A stretch of DNA of 64,000 nt from Escherichia phage EcNP1, in the sequence record NC_054910.1; one strand, 5' to 3'. This document shows, in pieces, positions 14,715-51,418 of this stretch (position 1 is its first letter; every line of letters begins with the position of its first letter). A program made the translations under genes and the position numbers. Under the pieces are notes generated by a model. That model did no database searches and was not told the origin of the DNA. It saw only the letters and a program-made list of their open reading frames with translations.

Positions 14715-14716
14715 TA

Positions 14717-14992: not shown

Positions 14993-14994
14993 AT

Positions 14995-15385: not shown

Positions 15386-16603
<1,218 letters not shown>

Positions 16604-16607
<4 letters not shown>

Positions 16608-16834: not shown

Positions 16835-17130
16835 TTACATTTATCCTCTTTTAGCTCTTGACGATAATAACATATCATAGTTTTTTGGTCATGTACATAT
16901 CGTTTTACATCATTAAGCCAAATACGAAATTCCTGGGAATCTTCAAATGGCATACCGACCCAAGCTTTACCATCAATAACTTTAACTTGCCAAGATAGTT
17001 TAGCTTCATCGTATGACTTTATTTGCACAGGCCAATTAGGATGAACTGTTTCTTTCTTTACTTCTAGAGGCTTTGTCGAACAACCAACTAGAAGACCAAT
17101 AGATAATATTACTGCTGATAGTTTAATCAT
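16831..17130 (-). CDS. o-spanin (outer-membrane lipoprotein, pseT.2-like)
   Basis: 99 aa; signal peptide with lipobox LLVGC; directly downstream of, and overlapping, an i-spanin-like ORF. Confidence 0.65.
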   Translation of the reverse strand: MIKLSAVILSIGLLVGCSTKPLEVKKETVHPNWPVQIKSYDEAKLSWQVKVIDGKAWVGMPFEDSQEFRIWLNDVKRYVHDQKTMICYYRQELKEDKCK

Positions 17131-17480
17131 TTAGAAAGGTCCTGGATGTCTTCTGCGAACTTGTTGAAGGAGTTGTTGATTTGTTTTTCAACCAATCCTG
17201 GCTTATGAGCCACCACATCCGCCTTCTTTGCATCTTTGCGCAGTTTTTCATTTTCACGCTCAATAGCAGCAATTGCCTCACGATTTTTATTATTCATCGC
17301 ATCAATATAATTATACTGAATTCGCAAATTATCTAATGCTAAAGCGTTTTCATTGGCCGTTTTTGTAATTTCTACAACAGACGTTTCTAATCTTTCAATT
17401 TTACTTTTTAAAATTAAAGAAGTTCCGCCCAATGCAATTACAATTAATAACAAGCCTGCTGTCGTATTACTTAATTGCAT
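17127..17480 (-). CDS. i-spanin (inner-membrane anchored, pseT.3-like)
   Basis: 117 aa; N-terminal TM helix AGLLLIVIALGGTSLIL then coiled-coil-like periplasmic region. Confidence 0.65.
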   Translation of the reverse strand: MQLSNTTAGLLLIVIALGGTSLILKSKIERLETSVVEITKTANENALALDNLRIQYNYIDAMNNKNREAIAAIERENEKLRKDAKKADVVAHKPGLVEKQINNSFNKFAEDIQDLSK

Positions 17481-17974
17481 AAAGTTTTAATAACCTCTAC
17501 AATATCGTCTTGAGAAAGACCGTTAATTAAAATATGATGTTCAGCCGGAGATTTAGAAATTTTAAAGCATGCCTCAACATCTTCTGCCATATCTGACGCG
17601 TTACGATTTGGATTACTAATTCCAAGACGATGTTTTCCCGTCAAAGGATTAACGATGATGTAGCATTTACAGTTGTTAATATGAACATTAGGTTGAGTCT
17701 GATTAATAAACACTTCACAATCATATTTAGCAAGCTGATTTTCTAAAAAGACTTTCATCTCCTCAACTGCATCAGGAAGCATATCACGGGCTTGCTCAAG
17801 ACGACGATTTCGATATTCTTTAATGGTCGTTTTCCGCTTGACTTGCTTAGCTAAATCTTTCTTAAGATCGGTGATATATCCAACTCGACGATTTCCTTTA
17901 AATACAGAAATCCCATCTGTAGTATCACCGTATGCTTCAACGACCATTTCAGTAGTAATAAGCTGTAAATCCAT
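17471..17974 (-). CDS. alc: Alc-like protein (transcription termination on dC-DNA), by position
   Basis: 167-168 aa matching T4 Alc size; position between gene 63 and the spanins as in T4. Confidence 0.55.
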   Translation of the reverse strand: MDLQLITTEMVVEAYGDTTDGISVFKGNRRVGYITDLKKDLAKQVKRKTTIKEYRNRRLEQARDMLPDAVEEMKVFLENQLAKYDCEVFINQTQPNVHINNCKCYIIVNPLTGKHRLGISNPNRNASDMAEDVEACFKISKSPAEHHILINGLSQDDIVEVIKTLCN

Positions 17975-17982
17975 CATAAAGT

Positions 17983-18035
17983 CCTCATGTTGTGTCAGTA
18001 AGTCTACTGTAACACAACATGAGGGACTTGTAAAC
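17983..18035 (-). repeat. copy B of dispersed ~60-bp element: 13-bp perfect inverted repeat plus GTTTAC box
   Basis: CCTCATGTTGTGT-(16 nt)-ACACAACATGAGG then GGACTTGTAAAC; near-identical to the element at 2285-2345. Confidence 0.7.
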
Positions 18036-18038
18036 AGC

Positions 18039-19626
<1,588 letters not shown>

Positions 19627-19653
19627 AATAAAATGGGCCTTGCGGCCCACTCC

Positions 19654-20823
19654 TTAAAAATATTTTTTAAAACTCATCATAACTTTATCATCAACATCAT
19701 TATCAATCTGTGCAACAAGGTAAGATGACAGTTCTACTTCTTGCGGCGCGGATTGAACATTATCAGAATTAAGATATTCACGAATCCAAGGATACGGATG
19801 TTTAACCGGAGCATCGGTAATTGGGCATGGAAGACCGCACTGTTTCATACGAGATACAGTTAAGTAATCAATAAAGCTCCACATGCTATTTGTATTTAAT
19901 CCAGGAACATCGCCATCTTTAAATAAATGAACTGCCCAGTCTTTTTCTTGGCGGTTAACTTCCATGAAAATATCAACTGCTTCTTGTTCACACTCTTGAG
20001 CAATTTTAACCCATTCATCACCATCTGTGCCAAGTTGAAGTTGACGAATAATATATTGGGTGCCTTTAAGGTGTAGCTGTTCATCACGTGCAATGAACTT
20101 CATAATCTTAGCATTACCTTCCATGATTTCCATGTTTTTATGGAAGTTAAAGGTGCATGCGAAAGATACATAAAAACGAATAGCTTCCAAGGCGTTGATT
20201 ACATGCAAGCAGAGGTAAAGAGATTTCATTAATGCTCGTTTAGTACATTCAACAACTTTGCCTAACTCTTCTTTACGAAATCCTTCTGATAAAATTCCTT
20301 CATAATCTTCAACCGCATTCTGATATTCACGAGTCTTAACTAGAACATCATCATAATAGCGACCAATGGACTCGGCACGTTTCATAATAGCTTTATCTAA
20401 TACAATCTCATCAAATACCTTTGACGGATCAGTATAAAGATTTCGCATGATATGAGTATATGAACGGCTGTGAATAGTTTCACTAAAAGTCCATGTAGCA
20501 ACCCATGTATCAAGACTTGGGTCTGAAATTAATGACATAAGTACAGCAGACGGTGCACGACCCTGAATGCTATCCAAAAGTGATTGATACTTCAGATTAT
20601 TAGTAAAAATATCTTGCTGATACTGAGGAAGCTTGTTAAATTGTGCAGCATCCATCATCAAGTTTACTTCTTCAGGACGCCAGAAAAATGACAACTGCTT
20701 TTCGGTTAAATCTTCAAAAACTTTATGACGTTGAATATCGTAACGCGCAATACCAAGACCTGAACCGAAGAACATAGGTTCTTTTAAAACATCAACTGGA
20801 TTTGTATTAAAAACTGTGCTCAT
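19654..20823 (-). CDS. nrdB: ribonucleotide reductase small subunit (uninterrupted)
   Basis: 389 aa (T4 NrdB 388 aa); continuous ORF, no intron. Confidence 0.93.
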   Translation of the reverse strand: MSTVFNTNPVDVLKEPMFFGSGLGIARYDIQRHKVFEDLTEKQLSFFWRPEEVNLMMDAAQFNKLPQYQQDIFTNNLKYQSLLDSIQGRAPSAVLMSLISDPSLDTWVATWTFSETIHSRSYTHIMRNLYTDPSKVFDEIVLDKAIMKRAESIGRYYDDVLVKTREYQNAVEDYEGILSEGFRKEELGKVVECTKRALMKSLYLCLHVINALEAIRFYVSFACTFNFHKNMEIMEGNAKIMKFIARDEQLHLKGTQYIIRQLQLGTDGDEWVKIAQECEQEAVDIFMEVNRQEKDWAVHLFKDGDVPGLNTNSMWSFIDYLTVSRMKQCGLPCPITDAPVKHPYPWIREYLNSDNVQSAPQEVELSSYLVAQIDNDVDDKVMMSFKKYF

Positions 20824-20874
20824 AAATTTTCCGCTTAGTTAATAGATAGTGACTCGTCCGTGAGTCAAATTATA

Positions 20875-23139
20875 TCATAATTTACAGGATGAACAATCTT
20901 CAGCTTTTGGAGTTTCTATTTCATAATCATCAGTACCAGAACCATCACGGGTATTATGATAATAGAAATTTTTTCCGCCAAAATACCAAAAGTACAAAAG
21001 GTCATCAATCATTACAGACATTGGAACCTTTCCTTTTGGAAAAATCTGCGGGTCATAATATGTATTCGCTGAAGCTGATTGACATACCCATTTCAGCATA
21101 ATAGCTACTTGCGTAAGATAAGGTTTATTACCTTTCTTAGCTAATTTCCATGTATAATCATAGAGGTCTATGTTATGTTCAATATTGGGCACGACTTGAT
21201 TAAAGGAACCCTCTTTTGATTCTTTAACCGAGACTGGTCCACGTGGAGGCTCGATACCGTTTGTACTGTTAGAAACTTGGGAAGATGACTCACATGGCAT
21301 AAGTGCTGATAATGTGCTATTACGGATGCCAAAGAGCTTAAGGTCTTCCCGCAGCGACGACCAGTCACAAACGTATTTTGGAGCTGCGATTTGGTCAATC
21401 TTTTTATTGTACCAGTCGATAGGTAATTCGCCTCGAGACCAACGAGTGTCTGAATAATATTCGCAAGGTCCTTTTTCTTTGGCGAGCTTAATGGATGCTT
21501 TGATGAGTCCATACTGTAATCTCTCAAATAGTTCATGTGTTAAATCGTTAGCATCTTCATAAGAAGCAAAGTTACTTGCCAGCCAAGCTGCATAGTTAGT
21601 AACACCTACACCAAGATTTCGACGCTTTTTAGCTTTTTCTGCTTCAGGAACTGGATATCCTTGGTAATCCAAAAGATTATCAAGAGCGCGAACTTGAACT
21701 TCTGCTAATTCATTAATTTTATCTTGGTCTTGCCAATCGAAGTTATCCAACACAAATGCAGATAACGTACACAATCCAATTTCAGCATCAGGGCTATTCA
21801 CATCATTTGTTGGAATAGCAATTTCACAACACAAGTTACTCTGACGAATAGGTGCCTTTTCACGAATAAATGGAGTATAGTTATTCGTATTATCAATGAA
21901 CTGCACATAAATCCTTGCTGTTCCTGAACGTTCAGTCATGAGTAATTCAAACAGTTCACGTGCTTTAATACGCTTTTTACGAATATTAGGGTCTTTTTCT
22001 GCGGCTTCATACAATTCACGGAAACGGTCTTGGTCTTTAAAATAAGAATAATAAAGTTCGCCACCCATTTCATGCGGACTGAACAAAGTAATGTAATCAT
22101 TCTTTCCGAATCGTTCCATCATTAGGTCATTCAGCTGGACGCCATAATCCATATGACGGATACGGTTTTCTTCTACACCTTTGTTATTTTTCAAAACGAG
22201 AAGATTTTCAACTTCCAAATGCCAAATAGGATAATAAGCAGTAGCAGCGCCGCCACGAATTCCACCCTGTGAACATGATTTAACAGCAGTCTGAAAATGT
22301 TTCCAAAAAGGAATAACACCAGTATGACGCACTTCACCTGTGCCAATCTTAGAACCTTCGGCACGAATCATACCAACGTTAATGCCGATTCCAGCTCGTT
22401 TGGAGATATATTCAACAATTGAAGCAGAAGCTTTGTTAATAGACTTCAGCGAATCACCTGCTTCAATAACAACGCATGAACTAAACTGTCGAGTTGGAGT
22501 ACGACATCCAGCCATAATAGGAGTTGGCAGTGAAATCTGTCGAGTAGATACTGCTTCATAAAAACGAATAACATGTTTTAATCTGTCAACAGGTTCATCT
22601 TGATGCAATGCCATTCCAATAGTCATAAATGCAAACTGCGGAGTTTCATAAATTTGACCAGTGGTTTTATCTTTAACGAGATATTTTTCTTTTAATTGCA
22701 TCGCCCCGGAATAAGTAAATTCCATATCCCGCTCGTGCTTAATTTTTGATTCTAAAAATGTAATTTCTTCTGCTGAATATTTTGACAACAGTTCAGGGTC
22801 GTATTTACCTTCATTTACACAGTAAGAAATATGGTCAATAAATGAACGCGGTTCATACTGTCCGTAAACATGCTTACGAAGAGCAAACATTAAACAGCGA
22901 GCGGCTACGTATTGATAATCAGGCTCTTCAACTGAAATAGAATTCGCAGCAGCCTTAATGACAATAGTCTGAATGTCGTCAGTTGTCATTCCATCACGGA
23001 GATATGATTTAATATTTTCATATAATTCATAAGGATCTACAGATGTTCCTTCAGCTGCCCAAGATAAAACTTTAATAATTTTTTGCGGGTAAAAGCTCTG
23101 AGAAACACCACTACTTTTGATAACATTAATTAATTGCAT
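20875..23139 (-). CDS. nrdA: ribonucleotide reductase large subunit
   Basis: 754 aa (T4 NrdA 754 aa); N-terminal ATP-cone, class I RNR active-site region CEIAIPT. Confidence 0.95.
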   Translation of the reverse strand: MQLINVIKSSGVSQSFYPQKIIKVLSWAAEGTSVDPYELYENIKSYLRDGMTTDDIQTIVIKAAANSISVEEPDYQYVAARCLMFALRKHVYGQYEPRSFIDHISYCVNEGKYDPELLSKYSAEEITFLESKIKHERDMEFTYSGAMQLKEKYLVKDKTTGQIYETPQFAFMTIGMALHQDEPVDRLKHVIRFYEAVSTRQISLPTPIMAGCRTPTRQFSSCVVIEAGDSLKSINKASASIVEYISKRAGIGINVGMIRAEGSKIGTGEVRHTGVIPFWKHFQTAVKSCSQGGIRGGAATAYYPIWHLEVENLLVLKNNKGVEENRIRHMDYGVQLNDLMMERFGKNDYITLFSPHEMGGELYYSYFKDQDRFRELYEAAEKDPNIRKKRIKARELFELLMTERSGTARIYVQFIDNTNNYTPFIREKAPIRQSNLCCEIAIPTNDVNSPDAEIGLCTLSAFVLDNFDWQDQDKINELAEVQVRALDNLLDYQGYPVPEAEKAKKRRNLGVGVTNYAAWLASNFASYEDANDLTHELFERLQYGLIKASIKLAKEKGPCEYYSDTRWSRGELPIDWYNKKIDQIAAPKYVCDWSSLREDLKLFGIRNSTLSALMPCESSSQVSNSTNGIEPPRGPVSVKESKEGSFNQVVPNIEHNIDLYDYTWKLAKKGNKPYLTQVAIMLKWVCQSASANTYYDPQIFPKGKVPMSVMIDDLLYFWYFGGKNFYYHNTRDGSGTDDYEIETPKAEDCSSCKL

Positions 23140-23696: not shown

Positions 23697-24556
23697 TTAC
23701 ACCGCCATTTTTCCTTTAATAGGAGGGTGTGATTCGTAACCTTTAAGAACGAAATCTTTAGGCCTGAGTTTAAGAACATATTCCAATTGTTCTTTAGTAG
23801 AAAGATAGCGGAATTTATAAGGCAATCCGCCTATTACCAGTTCACAAAGCTCTTTAGGTTCACGACGCAAAATTTCTTTACATTGTTCTACGTGATTCAT
23901 ATAAATATGAGTATTACCGCCAGAAAATATCAAATCTCCTGGAATAAGATTACACATCTTAGCTACAATATGAACTAATGCAGCATATGATGCAATATTA
24001 AATGGAAGACCGAGGAAAACATCTACCGAACGTTGATACCACTGCAAATCCAAATAGCCATTACGCACATTAAACTGATAGAACATATGACAAGGCGGTA
24101 ATGCCATATATTTAAGTTCAGCTGGATTCCATGCAGAAACAATTTGACGCCTATCATTTGGTAGTTTTTTAATACGATCAACAACTTCTATAATTTGGTC
24201 TACACCGCCAAAATCACGCCATTGTTTTCCATAAATTGGACCAAGTTCACCACTATGATATCCTAAATCTTTTGCTTGATTTTCGTAATTTTCATCCCAG
24301 ACTGTTTTGCCTTGAATTAATGAATCATGTTGAATTAATCGCAAATCATTGACATTTATGCTTCCCGATAAAAACCAAAGGAGCTCAGCAATGCAAGCTT
24401 TCCAGGCGAGCTTCTTAGTTGTTACTGCAGGAAAACCTTTACTTAAATCCCAGCGCAATTTAGTACCAAACAAAGCAATTGTTCCTGTGCCTGTTCGGTC
24501 ATCGGTTTCGTAACCATTTTCCAGGATATCTTTAATTAAAAATTGGTATTGTTTCA

Positions 24557-24557
<1 letters not shown>
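23697..24557 (-). CDS. td: thymidylate synthase (intronless)
   Basis: 286 aa from ATG at 24557 (T4 Td 286 aa, MKQYQ...); catalytic region PPCH present; continuous reading frame. Confidence 0.95.
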
Positions 24558-25586
<1,029 letters not shown>

Positions 25587-27046: not shown

Positions 27047-27955
27047 TTAAAGGTCATTCAAAAGGTCATCCAGGTCCGTGTCATCAGCACTAGATGAACT
27101 GCTAGAGCTTGAGCTCATAAAATCATCTTCAGTTTTTGTTTTGAAGTCATCAACATTGAATGCATCCAAATCATCAGCAACTTTATCAGCTTTCTTAGCA
27201 GCAGTTGCTGCGGCACCACCCATAGCAGCAGTTCCCATAACTTGACTGAACTTAGTGCTCAGTTCTTCAAACGATTTGAATTTATCTTTAGAAGTCATTT
27301 CAGAAAGGTCAACCATCTGTTCAAACAGTTCTTTCTGGAAAGATTCATCATCAATGTTTGGAATCGCAGATTGATTCAGGAATTTAGATTCGTCGTAGTT
27401 ACTAAAACCAGAAACTTGTTTAACTTTCAGTACAAAGTTAGCACCTTCCCACGGACAAGTTACATCAACTGGGGTTTCACCCATTTCAACATCAACTGCA
27501 ATCATTGCGTTGATTTTATCCCAGATTTTCTTACCGAAACGATATTTAAATACTTTACCTTCATTTTCTGGAGCAGCTGGGTCTTTTACTACAAGAATGT
27601 TAGCCCAGTAAGAAGTTTTACGTTTAACAAGACCGTACTCTTTATTGTCAGTGTTATACAAATCATTTTTACTGATGTACTGACATACTGGACAAGAATC
27701 GTAATCACCGTGGGTAGATGAACAGTTTTCAATATACCATTTACCATTTTTCTTGAAACCGTGATTTACAAGAATTGCGAATGGTGCTTGTTCATCATTT
27801 TTAGACGGAAGAAAACGAATTACTGCTTGACCGTTACCCGCATTATCGAGTTTCAGTTTCCACTCGCCTTTATCTTCAGAAGAAAAACCACCTTTATTTC
27901 CAGCCAGTTTAGCCATTTGTGCAGCGAGTTCAGCAGTAGATTTACGTTTAAACAT
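27047..27955 (-). CDS. 32: single-stranded DNA-binding protein gp32
   Basis: 302 aa (T4 gp32 301 aa); T4-like N-terminus [17 protein letters not shown], acidic Ser/Asp-rich C-terminal tail. Confidence 0.97.
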
Positions 27956-28036
27956 TTTTATTTCCTTTTTAATTTAATTAACAGTTGGTGCTATGACGAT
28001 GTATGACCTCATAGCTGGTCAGTGAGATAATTATAA
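27956..28036 (-). promoter_or_regulatory. gene 32 leader: late promoter, pseudoknot and autoregulatory operator
   Basis: Minus strand TATAAATA at ~28029-28036; pseudoknot-forming UGACCAGCUAUGAGGUCAUACAUCGUCAUAGC at ~27980-28011; AU-rich unstructured stretch up to the ATG. Confidence 0.7.
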
Positions 28037-28054
28037 TCTATTTATAATAAGCAA

Positions 28055-28708
28055 TTAATACTTGCAAGATTTCACAGTTTCAATGAAAACACTTTTGGCT
28101 TTCTGTGAATCAATATTTAAAATTTTTCTATAAGCCTTTAACTTTATAGAATAATTATTCCAGACTAAATTATCAGTCTGTTCATCATGTTTATCAATTA
28201 TATTTAAAAACGAATCAAGCAAGATAAACGTCTCAAACGAAATTATATTCGATTGAAGTAGTTTAAAAATATAACTTGATTGAACTTTTGGATTATACTC
28301 AAAGATTTCTTTAAAAGCAGAAACTTCAACTTTTTTACTAAAATAATAAATGTTGCGAATATCTTCTTCAAACTTAAATTTAATTTGCTTTAAGCGTCCA
28401 ATATATTCACGATAAAATACAAGTGCATCAGCGTCAGAGATGTCACCAATCCAAGCATCTTGGTTAGCAACAAGATTGCTTATAAAGATTAAAGCAAGTT
28501 CCTTTAATTTATATTTTTCTGATAACTTCTGGAAAAAATACTTATCCCTTCGCTTTTGATAAGCGGCATCAGACACCCGCATGCACCAATTATACTTAAT
28601 TACATCATACTTTCCATTCATATGTTGTTTTATCATTAAGTATAATTTATAAACTGATTTACCATCAATGTATCTTTCACCACCAGCAGGCATGCGGAGT
28701 TTAATCAT
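28055..28708 (-). CDS. 59: helicase loader gp59
   Basis: 217 aa (T4 gp59 217 aa); position between 33 and 32. Confidence 0.88.
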   Translation of the reverse strand: MIKLRMPAGGERYIDGKSVYKLYLMIKQHMNGKYDVIKYNWCMRVSDAAYQKRRDKYFFQKLSEKYKLKELALIFISNLVANQDAWIGDISDADALVFYREYIGRLKQIKFKFEEDIRNIYYFSKKVEVSAFKEIFEYNPKVQSSYIFKLLQSNIISFETFILLDSFLNIIDKHDEQTDNLVWNNYSIKLKAYRKILNIDSQKAKSVFIETVKSCKY

Positions 28709-39020: not shown

Positions 39021-39052
39021 CAACAAGGGGCTTTGCCCCTTTGGAGAAAATT

Positions 39053-39853
39053 ATGGCAGTAGTTGGTGTTCCCGGCTGGATTGGAAGTTCATCCGTAAAT
39101 GAAACAGGACAACGATGGATGAGTCAAGCGGCTGGTCAATTAAGATTGGGTGTTCCTTGCTGGATGAGCCAATTCGCCGGACGCTCAAGAGAGATTATTC
39201 ATACCGTAACAGCAAACCATAACTTTAATGGTCAATGGTTCCGTGATAGGTGCTTTGAAGCTGGCGGTGCACCCATTGTATTCAATATTGTTGGTGATAT
39301 CGTTTCTTATTCTAAAGATGTGCCACTTTTCTTTATGTATGGGGATACGCCTAATGAATATGTTGTTCTTAATATTCATGGTGGTGTTCATATGTGGGGT
39401 CGTGGTGGTAATGGTGGATACACTCACTCAGGAGGCGACGGTAACGGTACACAAGGCGGTCATGTTATTCAAAATGATATCGGTGGACGGCTTCGTATTT
39501 GGAACTACGGTGTTATAGCTGCTGGGGGTGGCGGCGGCGGTGGTATTGCATATCGTCCACACTCAGGGGCAAACTGGCAAGATATCGGTGGCGGCGGCGG
39601 TCGACCTTTCGGTGGTGCTGGCGGTGGCGGTTATTCCGGTGGTGCTGCTTCGTATGAAGGTCCGGGTGGTGGTTATGACTATGGTAACGCACACTCCGGC
39701 GCAGGTGGTAATGCTGGTGCTGCTGGTCAGAATGCATGGTCTGACGGCGGTAAAGTTCTTAAAGTTGGTGTTGGTGGTGCGTCTGGTCATGCAGTGTTTG
39801 GGTCTTCTCCAACTTGGGGTGCTGTTGGAACAATTTACGGACCAAGAGTATAA
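39053..39853 (+). CDS. 38: T2-type receptor-binding adhesin gp38 (glycine-rich motifs + hypervariable segments)
   Basis: 266 aa from ATG 39053 (track start 39041 is TTG); N-terminus [13 protein letters not shown]; poly-Gly motifs [38 protein letters not shown] separated by short variable segments. Confidence 0.88.
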
Positions 39854-41555: not shown

Positions 41556-41835
41556 ATTGAATCACCTTCAGTTGACGTTTTAGTTCTTTTATCATTTCTT
41601 CGTTCATCGCAATATAAAGATCACGTAAAGCAGGTTTTAGCATTCCATTTATTGGGGAACTAAATGGACATACATAATCTTTTCCTACGAGCTTTTTAGT
41701 GAATTCCATATTACAGAACTGAAATGCCGGCTCATTGGCATAAATTCCCCATTTGGTTGACATCATTTTATTGGCATATTCCAATGCTTGGATTTGATTC
41801 ATAATTCCATCAATTTGAAACTTTTTAATATTCAT
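41539..41835 (-). CDS. hypothetical protein (98 aa)
   Basis: Track ORF. Confidence 0.5.
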   Translation of the reverse strand: MNIKKFQIDGIMNQIQALEYANKMMSTKWGIYANEPAFQFCNMEFTKKLVGKDYVCPFSSPINGMLKPALRDLYIAMNEEMIKELKRQLKVIQFGQGN

Positions 41836-42296
41836 TAGTAAAGGTCCTCAGAGTAAAGTTCTTTTTCACTACCGCCACGTTCAATACGTACTTGTCCAGC
41901 GTAAGTTGCAATAATCATTGCTTCTTCGCGGGTCCAATAATTACTATATTGGTCAATAAATCCTTGGTCATCATCACAAACTTGTTGAGTAACTAATTGA
42001 GGTTTAACTACATCTAAAACTTCTGCCATATCTTTAGAATAATGACGAGCACCTGGAATAACAAGAGTTCGTCCATCTTTTAATTTAAAACGGTTGGCTG
42101 CGCAAACAATTCGTCGTTGATATTTTTGATTTTCGTCCCAATATGCAGACTGCCAACAAATTTCAGGAACTTCATCTAAAACATTTTGTTCTGTGTATTC
42201 ACCACTGTAAGAAGCTAATTTAGCAGCCAAACTTTCTGGGGTCTCACGTGACAAAGCTTTATCTAACAGAGCTAAACGTTCTTTAAAAGTTTTCAT
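41835..42296 (-). CDS. hypothetical protein (153 aa)
   Basis: Track ORF. Confidence 0.5.
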
Positions 42297-42622
42297 TTAA
42301 ACCATCCTTTAATACGCTGCCACAAAGTTTTCTGTTGAGCTTTGTTAACACCAATTGAGCGAATAACTGGTTGAGATTCCTGGAATTCTTTATAATCAGC
42401 AAGGTAAATTTCGTAAGCTGAATCTGTAAAGGAACTTATCGCTGCCATGAAATTATTGCGAATACCTACTGGAGCATCTTTACTTTCACGAATAATCATG
42501 TATTTGCCAGTCTTAATCTTTACGATGGTTCCAAGATAAGCTCCATGGTACCAGATATCCCACCCCTCTTGAGTGGGTTCTGCACAACGACGAAGTTCAT
42601 TGATAATTTCTAACTTGTTCAT
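42293..42622 (-). CDS. hypothetical protein (109 aa)
   Basis: Track ORF. Confidence 0.5.
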
Positions 42623-42632
42623 TATTTATTCC

Positions 42633-43268
42633 TCACAGTTCAGATGCTACGGTGATTACAGCTTCAATGTTTTCTGCCGAGCGTTTAATGTCAAGATACA
42701 CATTACCATTTTTAGCGATTTTACATGACATTCCGATATCAGTAAATTTCTGAATATGATGTTCCATCATTTTGTATCCAAAAATTCGCATATTTCCATT
42801 GTTGTTAATTTCAAAATTACGAATTCCGTGAGTGCGTTTTTCTAAAATAGCAAGATAGTTACTACGATAAGTTTCAACCTTTTTAAGAACAAATCCATTT
42901 TCATCTAAAAGTTTTAGCATGAGGTCTTTATCTTCTTCCATATCGGAAGTAATCTCGCGAGCTTTACGAGTTGCTCGTTTTTTCAGCAGTTCCGGAGCAT
43001 TTTCCTGCGCGTATAAAGTTGCTGCATTTGAAATAATATCCTGAGCTTCACCAGTAATGATTAATCCATCACCAGATTTCTCCACCAGGCCTTTTTTAAT
43101 CAATACCCCAATATTACTATTAACTACTGCATTACCTAAATCTGGATGCACCTCACGAACTTCTGCAGCTGTAATGAAATCTTTCTTAGCAATGGTAATT
43201 AAAATCGCAGCAGTTTTTTCATTCAGAACATCGTTAGAAGCTTTGATGATGTAAGTTACTTTAGACAT
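42633..43268 (-). CDS. motA: middle-transcription activator MotA
   Basis: 211 aa (T4 MotA 211 aa); N-terminus MSKVTYIIKASNDVLNEKTAAILITIAKKDFITAAEV. Confidence 0.95.
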   Translation of the reverse strand: MSKVTYIIKASNDVLNEKTAAILITIAKKDFITAAEVREVHPDLGNAVVNSNIGVLIKKGLVEKSGDGLIITGEAQDIISNAATLYAQENAPELLKKRATRKAREITSDMEEDKDLMLKLLDENGFVLKKVETYRSNYLAILEKRTHGIRNFEINNNGNMRIFGYKMMEHHIQKFTDIGMSCKIAKNGNVYLDIKRSAENIEAVITVASEL

Positions 43269-43307
43269 TTTCTAATCTCCGTAATTCTGTATCAGTAGTT
43301 GATAGTT

Positions 43308-43339
43308 GTATAGTACCACAGTATGCTTTGGTTGTAAAC
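43308..43339 (-). promoter_or_regulatory. T4-type early promoter for motA
   Basis: Minus strand GTTTAC + ~18 nt + TACTAT, then conserved leader ACAACTATCAACTACTGATAC. Confidence 0.55.
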
Positions 43340-43357
43340 CGTTTTGTGAAAAAATTT

Positions 43358-43389
43358 TAAAATAAAAAAGGGAGAGCCGAGGCTCTCCC
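43358..43389 (-). terminator. intrinsic terminator
   Basis: GGGAGAGC-CGAG-GCTCTCCC 8-bp stem; minus RNA followed by UUUUUU. Confidence 0.65.
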
Positions 43390-43394
43390 TAAAA

Positions 43395-43544
43395 TTACTG
43401 CATGACTGTGATAACTGTCATGATAACACGTTGAATGCCGAACGCAAGAAGACCTCCTGCTACAGCTGGAACAACACCTAAACCCGCCAGTAAAATGCCA
43501 CCGGATACTAATGCAGCGCTTGTAATACCTATGAATGGACTCAT
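43395..43544 (-). CDS. small hydrophobic membrane peptide (49 aa, motA.1-like position)
   Basis: Not in track; ATG overlaps gene 52 stop; MSPFIGITSAALVSGGILLAGLGVVPAVAGGLLAFGIQRVIMTVITVMQ. Confidence 0.4.
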   Translation of the reverse strand: MSPFIGITSAALVSGGILLAGLGVVPAVAGGLLAFGIQRVIMTVITVMQ

Positions 43545-44869
43545 TTGATTTCCTCTAAATCTTTGGTGTATTCTGTAACTACATCAGTAGTTTTCCAATA
43601 TTCGTTTTCTTCTTTCTTAGCTTTAGCTTCTTCAGCAAGTTTCTTTGCTTCGTCGGAAGTCATATGAAAAATATTCATTCCGACTAGTTTATCAACATAA
43701 GAAGAATACATATCAATTTTAGAAAGTTCTTCGGTCAGTTCTTTGCGAGTTTTACCTTGTACAACAATTTCACCTGAAATTACTTTCTTAATGAAATGTG
43801 CCTTGGCAAAGGCTAAACGAAATGCTGATTCAGTTTCTTTGATTTTGTTATCAATTCGTTTTTGGACATAAGTTTTACGAACTTCAACGAAGTCTTTGAT
43901 TAAATCAACTACGTTATCGTAAACTTGTAGCTTTCCTTTCTCGTTGATGACTGTAATATTTTGGGAACGACGCTCAATCAACCCGAAGTCTTTCATGATT
44001 TTTGCATGGCGTTCTTCTTCGTTATCACTCAAAGAGTATTCTTTGCGGAATTTAACTTTAAAGCCAAAACCATGCTCACCACAAGCATCATCCCATGTAA
44101 TGAAGCCTTTATCTTCAAGCGGGTCTAAGATTTTACTCACATAAGTTTCACGATCATACTTATACGGAATCTCAGTGATATTCATTTGAGTTCGTGAAGT
44201 AAACTTGTACGTTCCACGAATTTCATATTGGCCATCAATTTCAACGACTTCACCACGAAATTCTGGAAATTCTACCTTCGGTTTAGTTACTTTCTTTCCT
44301 TGAAGAGCTTGTAGTACAGCTTTCTTGACAGAAGAAACACTATGAGGAAGAATGTAAGTTGCATAACCAGTTGCAATACCGGAAACACCATTAAGAAGAA
44401 CAGTAGGAATAATAGGCAAATAGAAAGCAGGAGGAATGTGTTCTTTATCTTGATGTACCGGAGCATATTCAGTATCTTTATATACGTTATAGAAATTTTT
44501 ACTTACACGAGCAAAAATATAACGACTCGCCGCTGCTTTTTGAACGGTACGAGAACCAAAGTTTCCTTGACCATCTAACAAAGGAAAGTTATTATTCCAA
44601 GTGTTAGCCATCAAAGCCCCCGCATCTTGTGCAGAGTTTTCACCATGATGATATCCAAGGTCAGCTACACCACCTGCAATAGAAGCAAGTTTGTGAAACT
44701 TATCTTTATTTCCTCGCGCCAAATCAAGAGCTCGAGCAATAACAAATCGTTGAACTGGCTTAAATCCATCAATCATATTTGGAATAGCACGATTTTCAAC
44801 CGTGTACATAGCATAAGCCAGTGCTTCATTATCAATGATACTTTTTAAATCGCGATTATTCAGTTGCAT
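43541..44869 (-). CDS. 52: DNA topoisomerase II medium subunit gp52
   Basis: 442 aa (T4 gp52 442 aa); GyrA-like N-terminus with PNMIDGFKPVQRFV. Confidence 0.95.
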   Translation of the reverse strand: MQLNNRDLKSIIDNEALAYAMYTVENRAIPNMIDGFKPVQRFVIARALDLARGNKDKFHKLASIAGGVADLGYHHGENSAQDAGALMANTWNNNFPLLDGQGNFGSRTVQKAAASRYIFARVSKNFYNVYKDTEYAPVHQDKEHIPPAFYLPIIPTVLLNGVSGIATGYATYILPHSVSSVKKAVLQALQGKKVTKPKVEFPEFRGEVVEIDGQYEIRGTYKFTSRTQMNITEIPYKYDRETYVSKILDPLEDKGFITWDDACGEHGFGFKVKFRKEYSLSDNEEERHAKIMKDFGLIERRSQNITVINEKGKLQVYDNVVDLIKDFVEVRKTYVQKRIDNKIKETESAFRLAFAKAHFIKKVISGEIVVQGKTRKELTEELSKIDMYSSYVDKLVGMNIFHMTSDEAKKLAEEAKAKKEENEYWKTTDVVTEYTKDLEEIK

Positions 44870-44873
44870 AAAT

Positions 44874-45014
44874 TTACCATACTAGTGAATGTAGTGCCAT
44901 AATAACATCAGAAATGAAAAGCACGACTTGAATTAATCCGAACATTACTCCATAATATAGCGCTACCAATAAAGTAGCAAGGGCTAATGAATAGCCCAAG
45001 ATTTTCTTAATCAT
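44874..45014 (-). CDS. small membrane peptide (46 aa, 52.1-like)
   Basis: Not in track; hydrophobic MIKKILGYSLALATLLVALYYGVMFGLIQVVLFISDVIMALHSLVW. Confidence 0.4.
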   Translation of the reverse strand: MIKKILGYSLALATLLVALYYGVMFGLIQVVLFISDVIMALHSLVW

Positions 45015-45165
45015 TGGTAGATAACAACACAAATGTTAAATATGCACACATACCCTGGGCTAAAGCTTGTGAAAACACACTGCTAGCATCGATACAGATA
45101 GTTAAAACACATGCTACTATCCAACAAATAAATGAAATAACTCCTAATAATTTTGCGATATTCAT
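45007..45165 (-). CDS. ac: small membrane peptide (52 aa), candidate Ac (acridine sensitivity)
   Basis: Not in track; hydrophobic; position between 52 and stp as in T4 (Ac 51 aa). Confidence 0.4.
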   Translation of the reverse strand: MNIAKLLGVISFICWIVACVLTICIDASSVFSQALAQGMCAYLTFVLLSTND

Positions 45166-45172
45166 ATTTTCC

Positions 45173-45253
45173 TCACTGGCGTCCGAAGACGCCTTTAGTT
45201 TTAAGATTGTTACGATAGAACTGCATTACATGTTCGTTATGGAAATTACTCAT
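45173..45253 (-). CDS. stp: Stp peptide (26 aa), activator of the host PrrC anticodon nuclease
   Basis: Not in track; translation [26 protein letters not shown] matches T4 Stp as I recall it; ATG overlaps ndd stop. Confidence 0.75.
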
Positions 45254-45708
45254 TAATATGCCTGCAAAACAAATTTAAAGTTATCAGCCAACATACGATT
45301 CATTTCTTCAAGCGTTTGATACTCAGAATGATGATTACGAGTAAACGCTAAAGCTAACTGACCTTTTCCAAATCCCGTCGTCAGAGGTTTCATCTTAGAA
45401 GCAGGTAGATAAAATACCGTGTATGGAACATTGTTATTTGCAATAGTACGCGCAAGCTGAGATCGACGCTGGCGAATATGACTTAGAACTGCACTGAATC
45501 CTTGCTTAGAACGCTGATTACCTACATAAAATCGCGCAGATACACACGGACTATCAAATGGACCACCAAATTTGCTTACTAAAAAGTAAAATCCAGGGTT
45601 AGACAAAATGTCTTTATGTGGAGTTCCAAAAACCCATTCACCGCCTTTGATTGTACCAATAACAGTTGCGCCTGCATTATTCAAATCAGTAACAGTCATA
45701 TATTTCAT
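45253..45708 (-). CDS. ndd: nucleoid disruption protein Ndd
   Basis: 151 aa (T4 Ndd 151 aa); position between denB-side ORFs and stp. Confidence 0.75.
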
Positions 45709-45767
45709 GTTATTTTCCTCTAATTATTTTCTACTCCAAGGCCGCATGAATACACACGGCCGATAAA

Positions 45768-45983
45768 TTAATCGTCGCAGTCGACGCTCAATTCCCAGAA
45801 CTCTTCTACAGTATAAGTTTTAGTATCATTTTCAATACAGAAACGTTCATTACTGTTATTTGCTAAAGTAGCGTTAACTGTCATTTTCTCGCTAGTGCTT
45901 TTAAGAGGTGAAATACGAATTAACTGATCACCATTATCTAAACAGAAAATTTCACCGACCTTTACATCTTTAAAAATTTTCAT
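45768..45983 (-). CDS. hypothetical protein (71 aa)
   Basis: Track ORF. Confidence 0.45.
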   Translation of the reverse strand: MKIFKDVKVGEIFCLDNGDQLIRISPLKSTSEKMTVNATLANNSNERFCIENDTKTYTVEEFWELSVDCDD

Positions 45984-46098
45984 AATTCACCTCAAGGAGT
46001 ATAAAATCCAAACGCAGTTGTTGACCATCCCATCCAGTATGGGAAATTTGCACCAATGTAAAACATAAGAATATAAAACCAAATGCTTAGTAAATTCA

Positions 46099-46317
46099 TT
46101 ATTTTACACCATTCCAAATTGTTTCAACCACAGATTTTAAGCCATTTTGATGAATGTCCATTCCGACAACCGTCATCAAATAGATTCCAACCACAACTGA
46201 ACCCAAGGCGAAAATCAGCCAGAAAATGAATAAAGCTGGAAAAATATTATCGAAAAACCATTCAATAAATGTAAAAGCACTACGTTTACGCTTCATATTT
46301 TCCTCACATAAATCCAA
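46099..46317 (-). CDS. hypothetical membrane protein (72 aa)
   Basis: Track ORF; two hydrophobic helices. Confidence 0.45.
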   Translation of the reverse strand: MDLCEENMKRKRSAFTFIEWFFDNIFPALFIFWLIFALGSVVVGIYLMTVVGMDIHQNGLKSVVETIWNGVK

Positions 46318-46445
46318 AGTAAGCGTTTAATACATCAATCATTAAAACGATTGGGAATATACTCAAAACTACTAGTATTATAACTACATTCCATATAGCT
46401 TTAACAATCTTTTTCATTTTCTGTTCCTCCGTAGTTGATAGAGTA

Positions 46446-46475
46446 ATAATACCACAGAGGAACAGTCTTGTAAAC
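46446..46475 (-). promoter_or_regulatory. T4-type early promoter
   Basis: Minus strand GTTTAC + 18 nt + TATTAT. Confidence 0.5.
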
Positions 46476-46664
46476 AACTTTTTTTTTTAAAAATATTCGT
46501 AATAAATGTGAATACCAATCACCACTGCCGAAACTTGCGCAACCCACCACGCACAAGCAATAAGTACAGAATTCAAAATTTTCATAATAACCTCATCACA
46601 AAAGTAAATGTTAAACAAATTAATGGAATACTAATTAACCAAACGAAACACCACCATAATGAAC

Positions 46665-46937
46665 TCATAGTTCAATCTCAGCGATTTTCATTTCATTACT
46701 ATTAATAGCCGCTTTAAGACTATCTGAAAGAATTACATTCCAGTGGTCATTCATATGACCATTAACTAAGCGTGTAATTTCTTCGGGAGTTGAAAAATAA
46801 GGCGTATCAGACTCCCAGTGCGATAGTCCCAAGCGAGTATAAATCATACCTTCATCATCGATAGAATATTCAACTGACACAAACTCATCAGTTATTTTAT
46901 GTTTAGCGTAATAAAATTTAAATTTCATTTTACTCAA
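46665..46937 (-). CDS. hypothetical protein (90 aa)
   Basis: Track ORF. Confidence 0.5.
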   Translation of the reverse strand: MSKMKFKFYYAKHKITDEFVSVEYSIDDEGMIYTRLGLSHWESDTPYFSTPEEITRLVNGHMNDHWNVILSDSLKAAINSNEMKIAEIEL

Positions 46938-47140
46938 TAATCCGCTAAAAGATCGACAATTGCATCACGAAGACACTTATTCGCAATACGTTTAAGAGCA
47001 ATTTCAGTTTCTGGAGCATTTTGAATAATCATTGAATTCAATTCAGCCTCAGCAAACTGAAGTTCTTTAACTAATTCAGCTTTATATTTTCCTTGCCCTT
47101 TCTTAGCTTTTGCTCGTTTTAATTCAGCTGTAGTAAACAT
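46934..47140 (-). CDS. hypothetical protein (68 aa; track ORF extends to 47239)
   Basis: ATG at 47138-47140 lies downstream of the early promoter at 47175-47204. Confidence 0.45.
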   Translation of the reverse strand: MFTTAELKRAKAKKGQGKYKAELVKELQFAEAELNSMIIQNAPETEIALKRIANKCLRDAIVDLLADY

Positions 47141-47174
47141 TTTATTCTCCAAATCCGTATCAGTTGATAGTTGT

Positions 47175-47204
47175 ATAGTACCACAGTCCTTGTGGTATGT
47201 AAAC
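47175..47204 (-). promoter_or_regulatory. T4-type early promoter
   Basis: Minus strand GTTTAC + 18 nt + TACTAT with ACCACA/TGTGGT inverted repeat in the spacer. Confidence 0.5.
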
Positions 47205-47220
47205 TGTTTTGTGAAAATTT

Positions 47221-47778
47221 TTAAATGGAAAGATACCATCCGCTGTAGTTGCTTTTTCTTACAACCTTACGAAGGTCTTCTCTATCACCGATGAACTTCG
47301 GAGTGTACTGGATGACACCTGGATGAATTTCTTTAGTGTTGAATATAATTATACAGTCAGCGACTTGATGATTTAGAATGGGCCCTAGATTTATTCCAGA
47401 ACCGTATGGATACTCTCCGCTGCATCCGGTTGTTACCGAAATCCAACGTGAGTCAGTTTGATGTGTTTTGACTTCTACACGAAGCCCGCAGTATTTTGGA
47501 TGCGCCAGTACATCCCACGCATATGTATACGGGTCATTAACATCCTCTTGGCCTTTGTTAACATACCCGCTTAGCCAATCTGCTACAAAAAACTCTGCGT
47601 ACACCGCGATACGGCATCTTTCGATAACTTCTGCTTTATCCTGATTTGGATTTTGTTTTAAAGAGTATCTTGCTGTATCAGCAATTTTGACCTTCATTTC
47701 ACTAGTCAAGTCACTGTTCGATAGGGTAAATGTCGGAATCTGAAATAGTCTCTGTAAACCCGGATTCGTTTTCTGCAT
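47221..47778 (-). CDS. denB: endonuclease IV (DenB), by size and position
   Basis: 185 aa (T4 DenB 185 aa); between ndd cluster and rIIB. Confidence 0.7.
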   Translation of the reverse strand: MQKTNPGLQRLFQIPTFTLSNSDLTSEMKVKIADTARYSLKQNPNQDKAEVIERCRIAVYAEFFVADWLSGYVNKGQEDVNDPYTYAWDVLAHPKYCGLRVEVKTHQTDSRWISVTTGCSGEYPYGSGINLGPILNHQVADCIIIFNTKEIHPGVIQYTPKFIGDREDLRKVVRKSNYSGWYLSI

Positions 47779-48031
47779 TTAGACTTTCCTTTTTACCGCT
47801 GAGATAAGCGTTATATACTTTAAGAGTACCATAATAAATTCTGTCATTTTCATCTAAAGACTCACGGTCGAGTTCCTTTTTATCCATGACTATAACATCA
47901 TTACAGTAAAGAAACCCAAGTTTTTCGTGACCAAACTCAAATTTATTGCAGTACACAATATTAGCGTGATGATTTCCGTGTAGATTAATCTCTTTTATGT
48001 CGGAATCACCGATATTCATACAATAAATCAT
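47711..48031 (-). CDS. hypothetical protein (106 aa)
   Basis: Track ORF; 68-nt overlap with denB start suggests one of the two starts is misplaced. Confidence 0.4.
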   Translation of the reverse strand: MIYCMNIGDSDIKEINLHGNHHANIVYCNKFEFGHEKLGFLYCNDVIVMDKKELDRESLDENDRIYYGTLKVYNAYLSGKKESLNAENESGFTETISDSDIYPIEQ

Positions 48032-48039
48032 AATTTCCC

Positions 48040-48064
48040 TTAAAACAAAAGGGCCGAAGCCCTT
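48040..48064 (-). terminator. UUCG-tetraloop hairpin terminator
   Basis: GGGC-CGAA-GCCC on plus; minus RNA followed by UUUUGUUUU. Confidence 0.55.
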
Positions 48065-48067
48065 ATT

Positions 48068-48262
48068 TTATTTGAATTGTGCAATTCTTTTCTCTAAACA
48101 ATCTGCGTAAGATTTCATTGAGATAAATTGTGAAAGCAACAGTTCTTGTTCAACTTCATTAATCGTTATAAACTTTGTGCTTTCTAAAAATTTGCTCAGT
48201 GCATTAATTTTGAGCATTAATTGATCGTATTCTTCTTTTACTCGTGCTTGATAACCTAACAT
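48068..48262 (-). CDS. hypothetical protein (64 aa)
   Basis: Track ORF bracketed by two UUCG hairpins. Confidence 0.45.
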   Translation of the reverse strand: MLGYQARVKEEYDQLMLKINALSKFLESTKFITINEVEQELLLSQFISMKSYADCLEKRIAQFK

Positions 48263-48290
48263 AATTTTCCTTAGTTAAGGGCCGAAGCCC

Positions 48291-49229
48291 TTATTTGAAT
48301 TGTTCAGTAACGTCTTCAATTACTTCGTATTGGCAGGTACGCATTTTAGCATCGTTGTAATCAATCGGAATTGATACTACATCGCGAGGATGTACTTTAA
48401 CTTTTACAACTCGGCTGGTTGAACTGCCAAAGTGACGAATATAAGATTTAGAACACACATGCAGACCACGAGAACAAGTTTGTGTATCATCGTCATTCAC
48501 ACGAGTACGTGGCATTTTAACTACTTTGCCAGGACTGTTATCAAAAGTATTTGAATGACAGTCAAAGTAATTACTGCGAACTACTTTCCAAGCATAGAAG
48601 TAACCGTCTTCTGTAATTTCAATATCGTTTGCTACCAAGAAATCAAAGAGTCGAGATACCGCTTTTTGGCTCGGGTTTTCCAACAGATTTTCCAAGAACG
48701 GAAAATAAAATTCAAAGTTTTCACCTTTTTCCATCGAATCGAGAATACGATCAACTAAACCAGACCGCAATTCAATATTTTGATAGAACAAGCTTCCACC
48801 TTCAATTCGAACATCACCGGAAATATATTTTTCAACAGCGCGACGAACGTTAATTTTTTGCGCTGCTTCTTCCAATTTATCTGCAACAAGCAGATTAAGA
48901 ATTTCCTGGAAGTTTGAATGAGTATTAGGAGTTGCGTTATAAGTTACACCGTCAACAGTAATTGAAATGAATTTTTTAGATGCATTCCAAATAATGTCAG
49001 ATTTAGCAACTGGAGCAATAGCTGCATCACTCTTAACTGTAACTGTAATGTCACCGCTAATGGTAACTTTGGAGCGCTCAGCTTCTTCAGCATTTTTCAA
49101 AACACGACGGATTGTGTCCACCGATACACCTTGCCAATCAGCCAATTCCTGTTGGGTATAATTACCGCTTGAATACAATTTAACAATTTCAGCTTGTTCG
49201 TTTTTGGTCAGGCATTTAATATTGTACAT
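48291..49229 (-). CDS. rIIB: RIIB (rapid-lysis / Rex exclusion-related)
   Basis: 312 aa (T4 RIIB 312 aa); directly downstream of rIIA. Confidence 0.9.
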   Translation of the reverse strand: MYNIKCLTKNEQAEIVKLYSSGNYTQQELADWQGVSVDTIRRVLKNAEEAERSKVTISGDITVTVKSDAAIAPVAKSDIIWNASKKFISITVDGVTYNATPNTHSNFQEILNLLVADKLEEAAQKINVRRAVEKYISGDVRIEGGSLFYQNIELRSGLVDRILDSMEKGENFEFYFPFLENLLENPSQKAVSRLFDFLVANDIEITEDGYFYAWKVVRSNYFDCHSNTFDNSPGKVVKMPRTRVNDDDTQTCSRGLHVCSKSYIRHFGSSTSRVVKVKVHPRDVVSIPIDYNDAKMRTCQYEVIEDVTEQFK

Positions 49230-49240
49230 AATTTTCCTTA

Positions 49241-51418
49241 TTAGGCCGCAAGGGCCTTCATAGTTTTAGCGATTTGGGAAACTTCATCATCACTTAAAGA
49301 ATTGCGATAACCGATGAAGTCGGAAACAATACGGAATTTCTTGGTAAACTCAGCAACCATTTTATCACTGTTTTTTGAAGCATTATTTGATAATACATCA
49401 AAAAGATTAGTTACCGTCCAGATGTCATGACCGATGGTATCTTTTCCACCGTTGAAATATACACCCTGTAATGAACTAACCATATTAGCGAGTCGTGTAT
49501 ATTCTTCGGAAACTTCATCTACACTGAAGTACTTCATCATAAAATCTAACTCAGGATACTTGATAATTTTATCAATATATCGTTTAGCTGAACTTGAATA
49601 ACCTACATACTTATCATAATCTACATCATCAAAAGCATCTACATATAAATCACGCAAAGTTTCAAAAATACATTGACACTGACCAAGTTCTTTTACCTTT
49701 TTCTGTAAAAGTGGACGAATAACATAAAATTCATTAATGCCAATAAGATTAGCCATACGAGTCAAAATACTCGTAGATGGATGACAAAGCGATGTAGTAC
49801 CATCCATAGAGAAAATATCAGAACGATGCATGTATGCTACATAACCAGTAATTTCATCTGCTTCTGATGTGAGCGTAAACAATTCCTCTTTTTCCCAGCG
49901 CCCGTCTTTAATTTCAAACTTAAATGCAGTAGCAGTTTTAGGACGAGGAGCTGTACTTTTTACTGCCTTTGGAATATAACTTTTAACTAAAGCTTCAATT
50001 TCTGACAGATAATGAATGTTAACTTCATCACTTTCAAACATTGCGATAATATCAGGAAGCAAATCAATCTGCGATTCTACTTCCGGATTAATAAACAGAA
50101 GACGCTCATTGTGATGAATATTCAAAGTGTTATTAAATTCACTATCATCTAATGCACGTGCTAATCCACGGACAATATTAACACGATTTTTAATATTATC
50201 AATGACGATATTAATTTTTGTTGTGTTAATACCAAACAGACGATAACTTGATGCAACGGCTGAAGTTTCATGGCTTTGCTTAATGCGTTTCAGTCGAGGG
50301 TCAAGATTTACTTCATACACAACCCCTGCATTGCATAACTTACTATCAGGCTCAAACATGCTTTGCATCTTCTTATATGACAGATTTTTAGTCGTGAATT
50401 TGACCGAATTACTAATCATATAATCTCGAGCAGAATATCCCATCTTCATCAATTCACGGTATGTATGACGAGGAGATGTAGATTCTTTAAATCGTTTTAC
50501 ATCTTCATTGAATGCCTTCTCACTAAGCTCTTTAACACGCTCAATAATATTTTTACGAGTACGATCATCTAGTGAAAGAGCCTCACGCGATGGAGCAATA
50601 TCAAGTGAACCCATTGGAAACTTAATATAATTCACTTCATTGCGAATGCTTAACCAGTTACGGTCTCTAATAACACCATCGATAGGATAAACAATACCGC
50701 CATAGATAGCGTACAATCCACCACGATCTGGCCAGTATCTTTCTGGATTTACACCGTAATAGTCATCAAAATCCGGAAAATAATCAATTTCGCGGTCAAG
50801 ACCATTAATGATAGCCAAATCTTTGAATGGTCGCATGATATAAGAAACTTCATAAGCAAAGTTTCTAAAGTCTTTTTCTTCAACTGGAACTACGATTTCA
50901 ATACCAGTTTTATCATCTGGATCCATTTCTTTTACGAATGTAGGTTTAATCTGCGGACCATCACCATCCATGTAAGCTACATAACCGCGAATTTCACCTT
51001 TATGGTACGAAGTAATACTAAACGTATCAGTATAACTAAACGGAGATTTAGAACCTAAACCAAATCCACCAATGAAATCGTTAGATTCAGCCTTAGATGA
51101 ACTGAAGTATGAATTATACAACCCAGGAGAATTATCATCACCCTGAATATCAAAATCGCTCATACCCGGACCAAAATCTCGGCAAACAAATCGCGGATCT
51201 AATCGTCCTGGAACTTGAATGATAAATTTTTCAGGATTTCCATTGAGAGCATGGGCATCAATCATGTTGGTAATCAATTCACGTACTACTGCGCGAATCT
51301 TGTTTGTGTACAAATCAGATGATAGAATTTTAAATACTTTAGGAGATGCTGTGATGCTAAATGCTTTTGATTTAGAACCATTACCAAGAATTGTTTCTTT
51401 TTCAGTGGTGATAATCAT
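49241..51418 (-). CDS. rIIA: RIIA
   Basis: 725 aa (T4 RIIA 725 aa); N-terminal GHKL/HSP90-like ATPase fold motifs. Confidence 0.93.

Follow-up and report, generated by a model that had tools for sequence, protein, structure and literature searches.

Three tiny open reading frames lie between gene 52 and ndd in the 64,000-nt stretch of Escherichia phage EcNP1 DNA analysed here (NC_054910.1; hereafter the window). An initial annotation, made from the sequence alone, read one of them as Stp, the peptide that triggers the host anticodon nuclease PrrC, and took a polynucleotide kinase and an RNA ligase encoded elsewhere in the window for the enzymes that repair the resulting tRNA break. The question raised by this locus is whether the three frames are the orthologues of T4 52.1, ac and stp, and whether the trigger and the repair genes make up one dedicated set or are kept for separate reasons within one lineage.

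T4 pnk and rli mutants are inviable on prr+ hosts, and stp was defined as the suppressor of this lethality; its product is necessary and sufficient for activating the latent tRNA-Lys anticodon nuclease PrrC (PMC3014915). The peptide acts by inhibiting the PrrC-associated type Ic enzyme EcoprrI, and also inhibits EcoR124I, not the type Ia enzymes; the cut tRNA is healed and sealed by Pnk and Rnl1, and stp, pnk and rli are all delayed-early genes (PMC3014915).

Three micro-genes in T-even order between gene 52 and ndd

All three frames were found at the coordinates claimed for them, and every gene named in the initial annotation, which gave no strand, was located on the minus strand. From high to low coordinates, the cluster and its surroundings comprise the following features.

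45253–45708, minus strand: ndd, nucleoid disruption protein, upstream flank; 151 aa; Pfam Phage_T4_Ndd (E = 6.4e-89) and T4 synteny
45173–45253, minus strand: stp, 26 aa; T4 identity, Pfam PF08133 and phrog_6763
45171–45174, minus strand: Shine-Dalgarno sequence GAGG of ac, read from the sequence, 5 nt before the ac ATG
45007–45165, minus strand: ac, hydrophobic membrane peptide of 52 aa; phrog_2501 and comparison with T4
44874–45014, minus strand: 52.1, 46 aa from the ATG; Pfam DUF7396 and T4 gp52.1
43541–44869, minus strand: gene 52, topoisomerase II medium subunit, downstream flank; 442 aa; Pfam DNA_topoisoIV (E = 1.6e-76) and T4 synteny
43369–43390, minus strand: terminator-like hairpin downstream of motA.1, with a 9-bp stem (6 GC pairs), a T-run and the tail TTTTTTATTTT; consensus match

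The gene order ndd-stp-ac-52.1-52 is that of the T-even phages, and the junctions are extremely short: a single TAATG serves as ndd stop and stp start, the stp stop codon TGA (45173–45175) overlaps the Shine-Dalgarno sequence of ac, 52.1 begins within the final ac codons, its ATG creating an overlap of 8 nt (ATGATTAA), and the 52.1 stop codon is separated from the gene 52 ATG by 4 nt. This tight head-to-tail packing of early-strand genes would serve coupled translation. In the program-made list of open reading frames, 52.1 had been extended to a TTG, which gave a length of 52 aa. T4-early-like promoters were found upstream of ndd as consensus matches only, and the ndd-stp-ac-52.1-52-motA.1 transcription unit likely ends, by consensus match alone, at the hairpin at 43369–43390. 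From 41633 to 49375 the minus strand contains no match to the MotA box TGCTTNA, thus no sign of a middle promoter was seen within the cluster; in the whole window this motif was barely enriched (74 occurrences vs 57 ± 7).

Judged by its sequence, the window is part of a Tequatrovirus (T4-like) genome. The 501-bp region 44800–45300 was found in 551 phage records, in 461 of them near full length, and its best match was that to vB_EcoM_Nami (MZ502380; 99.8% identity, with one mismatch at 44809 in gene 52), which was also 99.5% identical to the window over 14000–20000. T4 (NC_000866 165209–165585; NP_049876–NP_049878) has the same gene order, strand, overlaps and 52 and ndd flanks, as well as the same C(UUCG)G hairpin and ac ribosome-binding site. 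Over a 421-nt stretch, the DNA of the window differed from that of T4 by 7 substitutions and one in-frame 3-nt insertion, which adds a Thr to Ac; three of the four substitutions in ac and 52.1 are synonymous, and a functional consequence is evident for none of the differences. Special synonymous constraint on the cluster was considered and rejected: synonymous differences from T4 were fewer there (5 of 124 codons) than in the flanks (78 of 595; Fisher p 0.003), but in a 100-nt mismatch profile the block of low divergence was seen to continue into the 5′ half of gene 52, so that it is a mosaic recombination block.

In the Nami record (161302–161684), the micro-genes are present but the interval between gene 52 and ndd is unannotated, and among the Stp tblastn matches listed, most records show only ndd under the match; these micro-genes are thus commonly missed by annotation pipelines.

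The 26-aa peptide is identical to T4 Stp

Alignment with T4 Stp (NP_049878), the check that had been asked for, gave 26 of 26 identical residues and so bore out the reading of the 26-aa peptide as Stp. The peptide matched the Pfam family PF08133, 'Anticodon nuclease activator', over profile positions 1–26 of 26 (E = 2e-21, 75.3 bits, with a family cut-off of 25 bits), and phrog_6763 (E = 4.4e-21), and the stp DNA differs from that of T4 at 2 nucleotides, both synonymous. Its 18 N-proximal residues (18/18 identical to T4) cover the region to which loss-of-function mutations map. In T4 such mutations are clustered at residues 4–14, deletion of the last 8 stp codons lowers both Stp activities only moderately, and T-even relatives hardly vary in the N-terminal 18 residues but are polymorphic in the tail (PMC3014915). 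The Stp of the T2 record PV958097, for instance, has another C-terminal tail (NFGILGFKK), encoded without the hairpin described below. With 100% identity to the T4 peptide, Stp of this phage would be expected to inhibit EcoprrI and EcoR124I and to activate PrrC. The word trigger takes the host's view, and it is preferable to regard Stp as an anti-restriction peptide whose action the PrrC guard senses.

Ac and 52.1 are hydrophobic membrane peptides

The description of the other two frames as hydrophobic, 52.1-like and Ac-like peptides of 46 and 52 aa also held, as both matched their families and are strongly hydrophobic (GRAVY 1.68 for 52.1 and 1.42 for Ac); Stp is hydrophilic (GRAVY −1.03). 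Ac, for which no Pfam family exists, matched phrog_2501 (E = 3.7e-25) and is identical to T4 Ac save for the one inserted Thr codon, and the same 52-aa allele was found in phage TOPO13. Wild-type ac renders infection acriflavine-sensitive and loss of the gene confers resistance (bioRxiv 10.1101/2025.06.30.662393; PMC13250531), and going by this literature Ac would confer acriflavine sensitivity on infection here as well. A 2025 preprint, echoed in a 2026 PNAS paper, proposed that Ac inserts in the membrane and blocks AcrAB-TolC (bioRxiv 10.1101/2025.06.30.662393; PMC13250531); this model is only a proposal. In the T2 record PV958097 (L005, about 1590–1760), a stop codon breaks the ac frame shortly after its start.

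52.1 matched Pfam DUF7396 over positions 1–46 of 46 (E = 3.5e-23), shares 45 of 46 residues (98%) with T4 gp52.1, and is a highly conserved membrane micro-protein. When Gaprivervirus VR7 (L004 1589–1889) was compared with the window at 44874–45165, gp52.1 was 89% identical and the peptide at the Ac position 31% identical. Between Tequatrovirus and Gaprivervirus, 52.1 is far more constrained than Ac.

Intact pseT and rnlA are encoded at a distance from stp

The two repair genes named in the initial annotation were both recovered, with matches to the T4 enzyme structures and intact catalytic motifs.

15385–16287, minus strand: pseT, polynucleotide 5′-kinase / 3′-phosphatase (Pnkp); PDB 1LTQ (E = 6.9e-170); Pfam AAA_33 and HAD_PNKP
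18039–19163, minus strand: rnlA (gene 63), RNA ligase 1; PDB 2C5U (E = 1.8e-253); Pfam RNA_lig_T4_1 and T4_Rnl1_C

In the PseT kinase domain (AAA_33, E = 2e-23), the P-loop GCPGSGKST, Asp35, Arg38 and Arg126 (SKRGTK) of 1LTQ are kept. In the phosphatase domain (HAD_PNKP, E = 8.6e-57), IFDLDGTLA stands for T4 IFDVDGTLA, and the nucleophile motif DLDGT, SGRES and DDR are kept. RnlA, which matches T4 Rnl1 over its full length and differs at only a handful of residues, has TKEDGS (with the motif I lysine) and KIKSD identical to 2C5U (RNA_lig_T4_1, E = 1.6e-25), followed by the Rnl1-specific C-terminal domain at residues 253–374 (T4_Rnl1_C, E = 1.1e-39). Kinase and phosphatase activity of PseT on the broken tRNA would be expected from this homology. 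With Stp identical to that of T4 at 26 of 26 positions and pseT and rnlA intact, the claim that the window encodes the trigger as well as the repair genes was upheld, and for each of the five genes, stp, ac, 52.1, pseT and rnlA, the comparisons above establish identity, integrity, synteny and conservation. The repair genes lie 26–30 kb from stp, with plus-strand late tail-fibre genes in between, and further roles are documented for them. No tRNA genes were found in the window.

The PseT kinase domain is almost identical to that of T4, and phosphatase residues from about 160 to 260 are clearly more diverged, with many substitutions and a one-residue deletion relative to T4 but with the catalytic residues kept. 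The diverged phosphatase part falls within 15385–15820 (minus strand), and the contrast with the kinase domain suggests that pseT may be a mosaic allele; the diverged allele is common to P922, JE01 and PP01-type Tequatroviruses (97–98% DNA identity).

Several further features of the window set it apart from T4. Two full-length tandem Alt-like ADP-ribosyltransferase paralogues of 685 and 698 aa, which share 42% identity, are encoded at 2343–4400 and 4404–6500 (both minus strand), whereas the T4 alt region holds one alt and the short remnants alt.-1 and alt.-2. At the positions of T4 nrdB (19654–20823, minus strand) and td (23697–24569, minus strand), single uninterrupted frames of 389 and 290 aa were found, and by the ORF layout, which also covers 20823–20875 and about 27955–28055, the homing endonuclease genes mobE and segG and the group I introns of T4, with I-TevIII and I-TevI, appear to be absent. 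The gene 38 position (39041–39853, plus strand) carries a T2-type tail-fibre adhesin (phrog_2056, E = 8.5e-108), not a T4-type assembly chaperone. No same-sized T4 counterpart was seen for one minus-strand ORF in the cd.2-cd.3 region (14126–14653) and two in the ndd.4-ndd.6 region (46665–46937 and 46934–47239), which match the PHROGs of unknown function phrog_3710, phrog_2390 and phrog_4535, respectively.

A C(UUCG)G hairpin lies within the last codons of stp

Near its 3′ end, stp contains a hairpin of the C(UUCG)G class, which was first recognised in T4 mRNA (PMC4371310), and a layout consisting of a hairpin, 3–4 nt, the sequence (G/A)AGGAAAAT and a start codon was found in three copies in the window, on the early-gene strand.

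45178–45193, minus strand: C(UUCG)G hairpin GGCGUC-UUCG-GACGCC in stp codons 21–25 (GVFGR), 3 nt upstream of the ac ribosome-binding site
10467–10452, minus strand: intercistronic copy of hairpin plus Shine-Dalgarno sequence, before a 30.6-like gene
48293–48276, minus strand: copy of hairpin plus Shine-Dalgarno sequence, overlapping the rIIB stop codon, before a 66-aa ORF

The stp hairpin was predicted to fold with −11.5 kcal/mol, accounted for 98% of the ensemble (z −3.1), and on the plus strand scored as terminator-like. The 146-nt stp-ac junction is not unusually structured (z −0.5), so that the local hairpin alone stands out. Across the window the motif CTTCGG occurred 30 times against an expectation of 14.1 ± 3.7, a twofold enrichment. 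T4 has an unbroken stem, and so does Gaprivervirus VR7, with the loop UUUG and different residues in the surrounding tail. T2 and TOPO13, whose tails are different, lack the hairpin; K1ind2 and Rtp lack it too but retain GVFG, indicating that peptide and hairpin are separable. No covariation was detected, the stem being invariant where present, and Rfam gave nothing in the whole window at gathering thresholds nor in 44500–45800 at E ≤ 1.

Any function of the stp hairpin is conjecture. Tentatively, and with doubt prevailing, the last stp codons may be dual-coded, as a recurrent T-even intercistronic arrangement that sets the stability or translation of ac or stops antisense transcription; if true, this would explain why the T4 lineage has retained a Stp tail that is dispensable for function. 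What is slightly new at this locus is only the placement of a hairpin inside dispensable stp codons, just upstream of the ac ribosome-binding site.

Stp occurs outside the T-even phages and is under purifying selection

In a tblastn search of 50,697 phage records, Stp matched 816, and 421 of these carried a peptide at least 99% identical. Beyond the Straboviridae, matches were found among small siphoviruses. The unrelated Kagunavirus K1ind2 contains an unannotated Stp-like ORF (L002 1501–1578; 23/25 residues identical) that follows the lysis genes and has no hairpin. Over the 25 codons shared with this siphovirus, 12 synonymous and 2 non-synonymous differences were counted, direct evidence that purifying selection acts on the Stp peptide. 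In Rtp, rtp6 is an annotated Stp homologue (L003 1483–1575; 80% identical, with a 5-residue N-terminal extension) that is situated among early genes, again without the hairpin, in a genome for which neither Rnl1 nor a Pnkp kinase domain is annotated. Two genes upstream, rtp4 (L003 495–1034, equivalent to L009 1444–1983), annotated as 'polynucleotide kinase', encodes a stand-alone HAD-type 3′-phosphatase with 31% identity to PseT residues 163–299 and a match to Pfam HAD_PNKP. The product of rtp1 was examined as a candidate for a separate Pnkp kinase domain and was rejected, as no similarity was found and rtp1 is a DUF7174 protein. Many Drexlerviridae showed a Stp match over the first 18–19 residues only, with weak E-values. 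Homologues of Rnl1 were found in 1851 phage records, compared with the 816 that have any Stp match. Among plasmids there was one Stp hit, to a 44-kb non-mobilizable record whose peptide resembles the K1ind2 type; it was discarded as evidence for Stp on plasmids since this 'plasmid' is probably a phage genome. These phage distributions fit a Stp selected as an anti-restriction peptide, in which case the full set of trigger and repair genes would belong to the T-even lineage and would not be an obligatory module.

Discussion

It is close to certain that 44874–45253 carries the orthologues of T4 52.1, ac and stp in a Tequatrovirus and that the T4-type Stp/PrrC/repair mechanism would be carried over with them; no sequence evidence against this explanation was encountered. 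As in T4 genetics and biochemistry, Stp would be made early and would bind and inhibit the host type Ic enzyme EcoprrI; in prr+ strains this inhibition would unmask PrrC, which would cut tRNA-Lys 5′ of the wobble base, after which Pnkp would heal the cut ends and Rnl1 would seal the healed tRNA. Ac, as a small membrane peptide, would let infected cells accumulate acridines. The biochemical activities, like the fate of infections on prr+ hosts, are expected here by analogy with T4. Since prr is an optional locus, not known in this phage's host, the conflict may rarely be played out.

Three other explanations were weighed against the T4-type one. Small ORFs are plentiful in the program-made list and Nami has nothing annotated here, as would be seen if the three micro-ORFs were chance frames in AT-rich DNA, or if the real gene were the 80-aa antisense ORF at 45014–45256 (plus strand). 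However, the family E-values between 1e-21 and 1e-25, a substitution pattern of purifying selection and T4 genetics that covers both stp and ac speak against chance frames, which the conservation data already refute and to which we attach practically no probability; the antisense ORF, tried as a gene, matched no PHROG family. We also consider it unlikely that constraint on the 3′ end of stp acts chiefly at the RNA level, with an incidental peptide tail, the hairpin serving mRNA stability, or nucleating a fold that presents the ac ribosome-binding site, or terminating antisense plus-strand transcripts. Such constraint would accord with the moderate effect of deleting the last 8 codons and the polymorphic tail of the T-evens, with the great stability of the hairpin and a stem that is intact in VR7 despite differing tail residues, with the same layout at 10467–10452 and 48293–48276 and the excess of CTTCGG, and with the terminator-like score on the plus strand. 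Yet the stem shows no covariation, the 146-nt region is unremarkable and without an Rfam match, and T2 and TOPO13 lack the hairpin although the 52-aa ac of TOPO13 is intact and the ac start region of T2 is kept; moreover, K1ind2 and Rtp retain GVFG without the hairpin, which argues that the amino acids themselves are selected.

More weight falls on the possibility that there is no dedicated trigger-plus-repair module, with Stp kept for anti-restriction, pseT and rnlA kept for broader reasons, and their co-occurrence a matter of lineage inheritance, a possibility that we take seriously without judging it probable. The broader reasons could be other anticodon nucleases, the healing of RegB-cut mRNA ends for RNase E/G decay, or the attachment of tail fibres by gp63, and an mRNA-decay role for PNK is listed in the T4 review (PMC3014915). 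Separate retention is favoured by the Stp-like peptides of K1ind2, Rtp and other Drexlerviridae, by the stand-alone Pnkp-type phosphatase of Rtp with no annotated kinase or RNA ligase, by the larger number of records with Rnl1 homologues than with a Stp match, and by the 26–30 kb and plus-strand late genes that part stp from pseT and rnlA. On the other hand, it was precisely by suppression of the lethality of pseT and rnlA mutations on prr+ hosts that stp was defined in T4, so the link is experimentally real, and the T4 Stp is identical to the one encoded here. Inheritance by lineage therefore refines the T4-type explanation and does not exclude it.

The trigger and repair set found here is exactly the situation of T4, described since the 1980s–90s and reviewed in PMC3014915, and is thus already known; conceptually, an intact set in another T4-like phage adds nothing, and its value is one of annotation. 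Automated pipelines under-report stp, a known gene of anti-defence that also triggers defence; its presence predicts that pseT or rnlA mutants, and possibly therapeutic phage derivatives, are sensitive on prr+ strains. Host guards that sense a phage anti-restriction factor, and phage RNA repair as the counter-move, were first exemplified by the Stp/PrrC/Pnkp-Rnl1 system, and recent reviews place Stp/PrrC as the prototype of such guards alongside Ocr/PARIS and Ronin. The logic of T7 Ocr sensed by PARIS, and of Ronin, is the same, in that a phage anti-restriction factor triggers an abortive tRNA-cleaving or toxic response; the proteins of these systems are unrelated to those of the Stp system, and the likeness is one of mechanism only.
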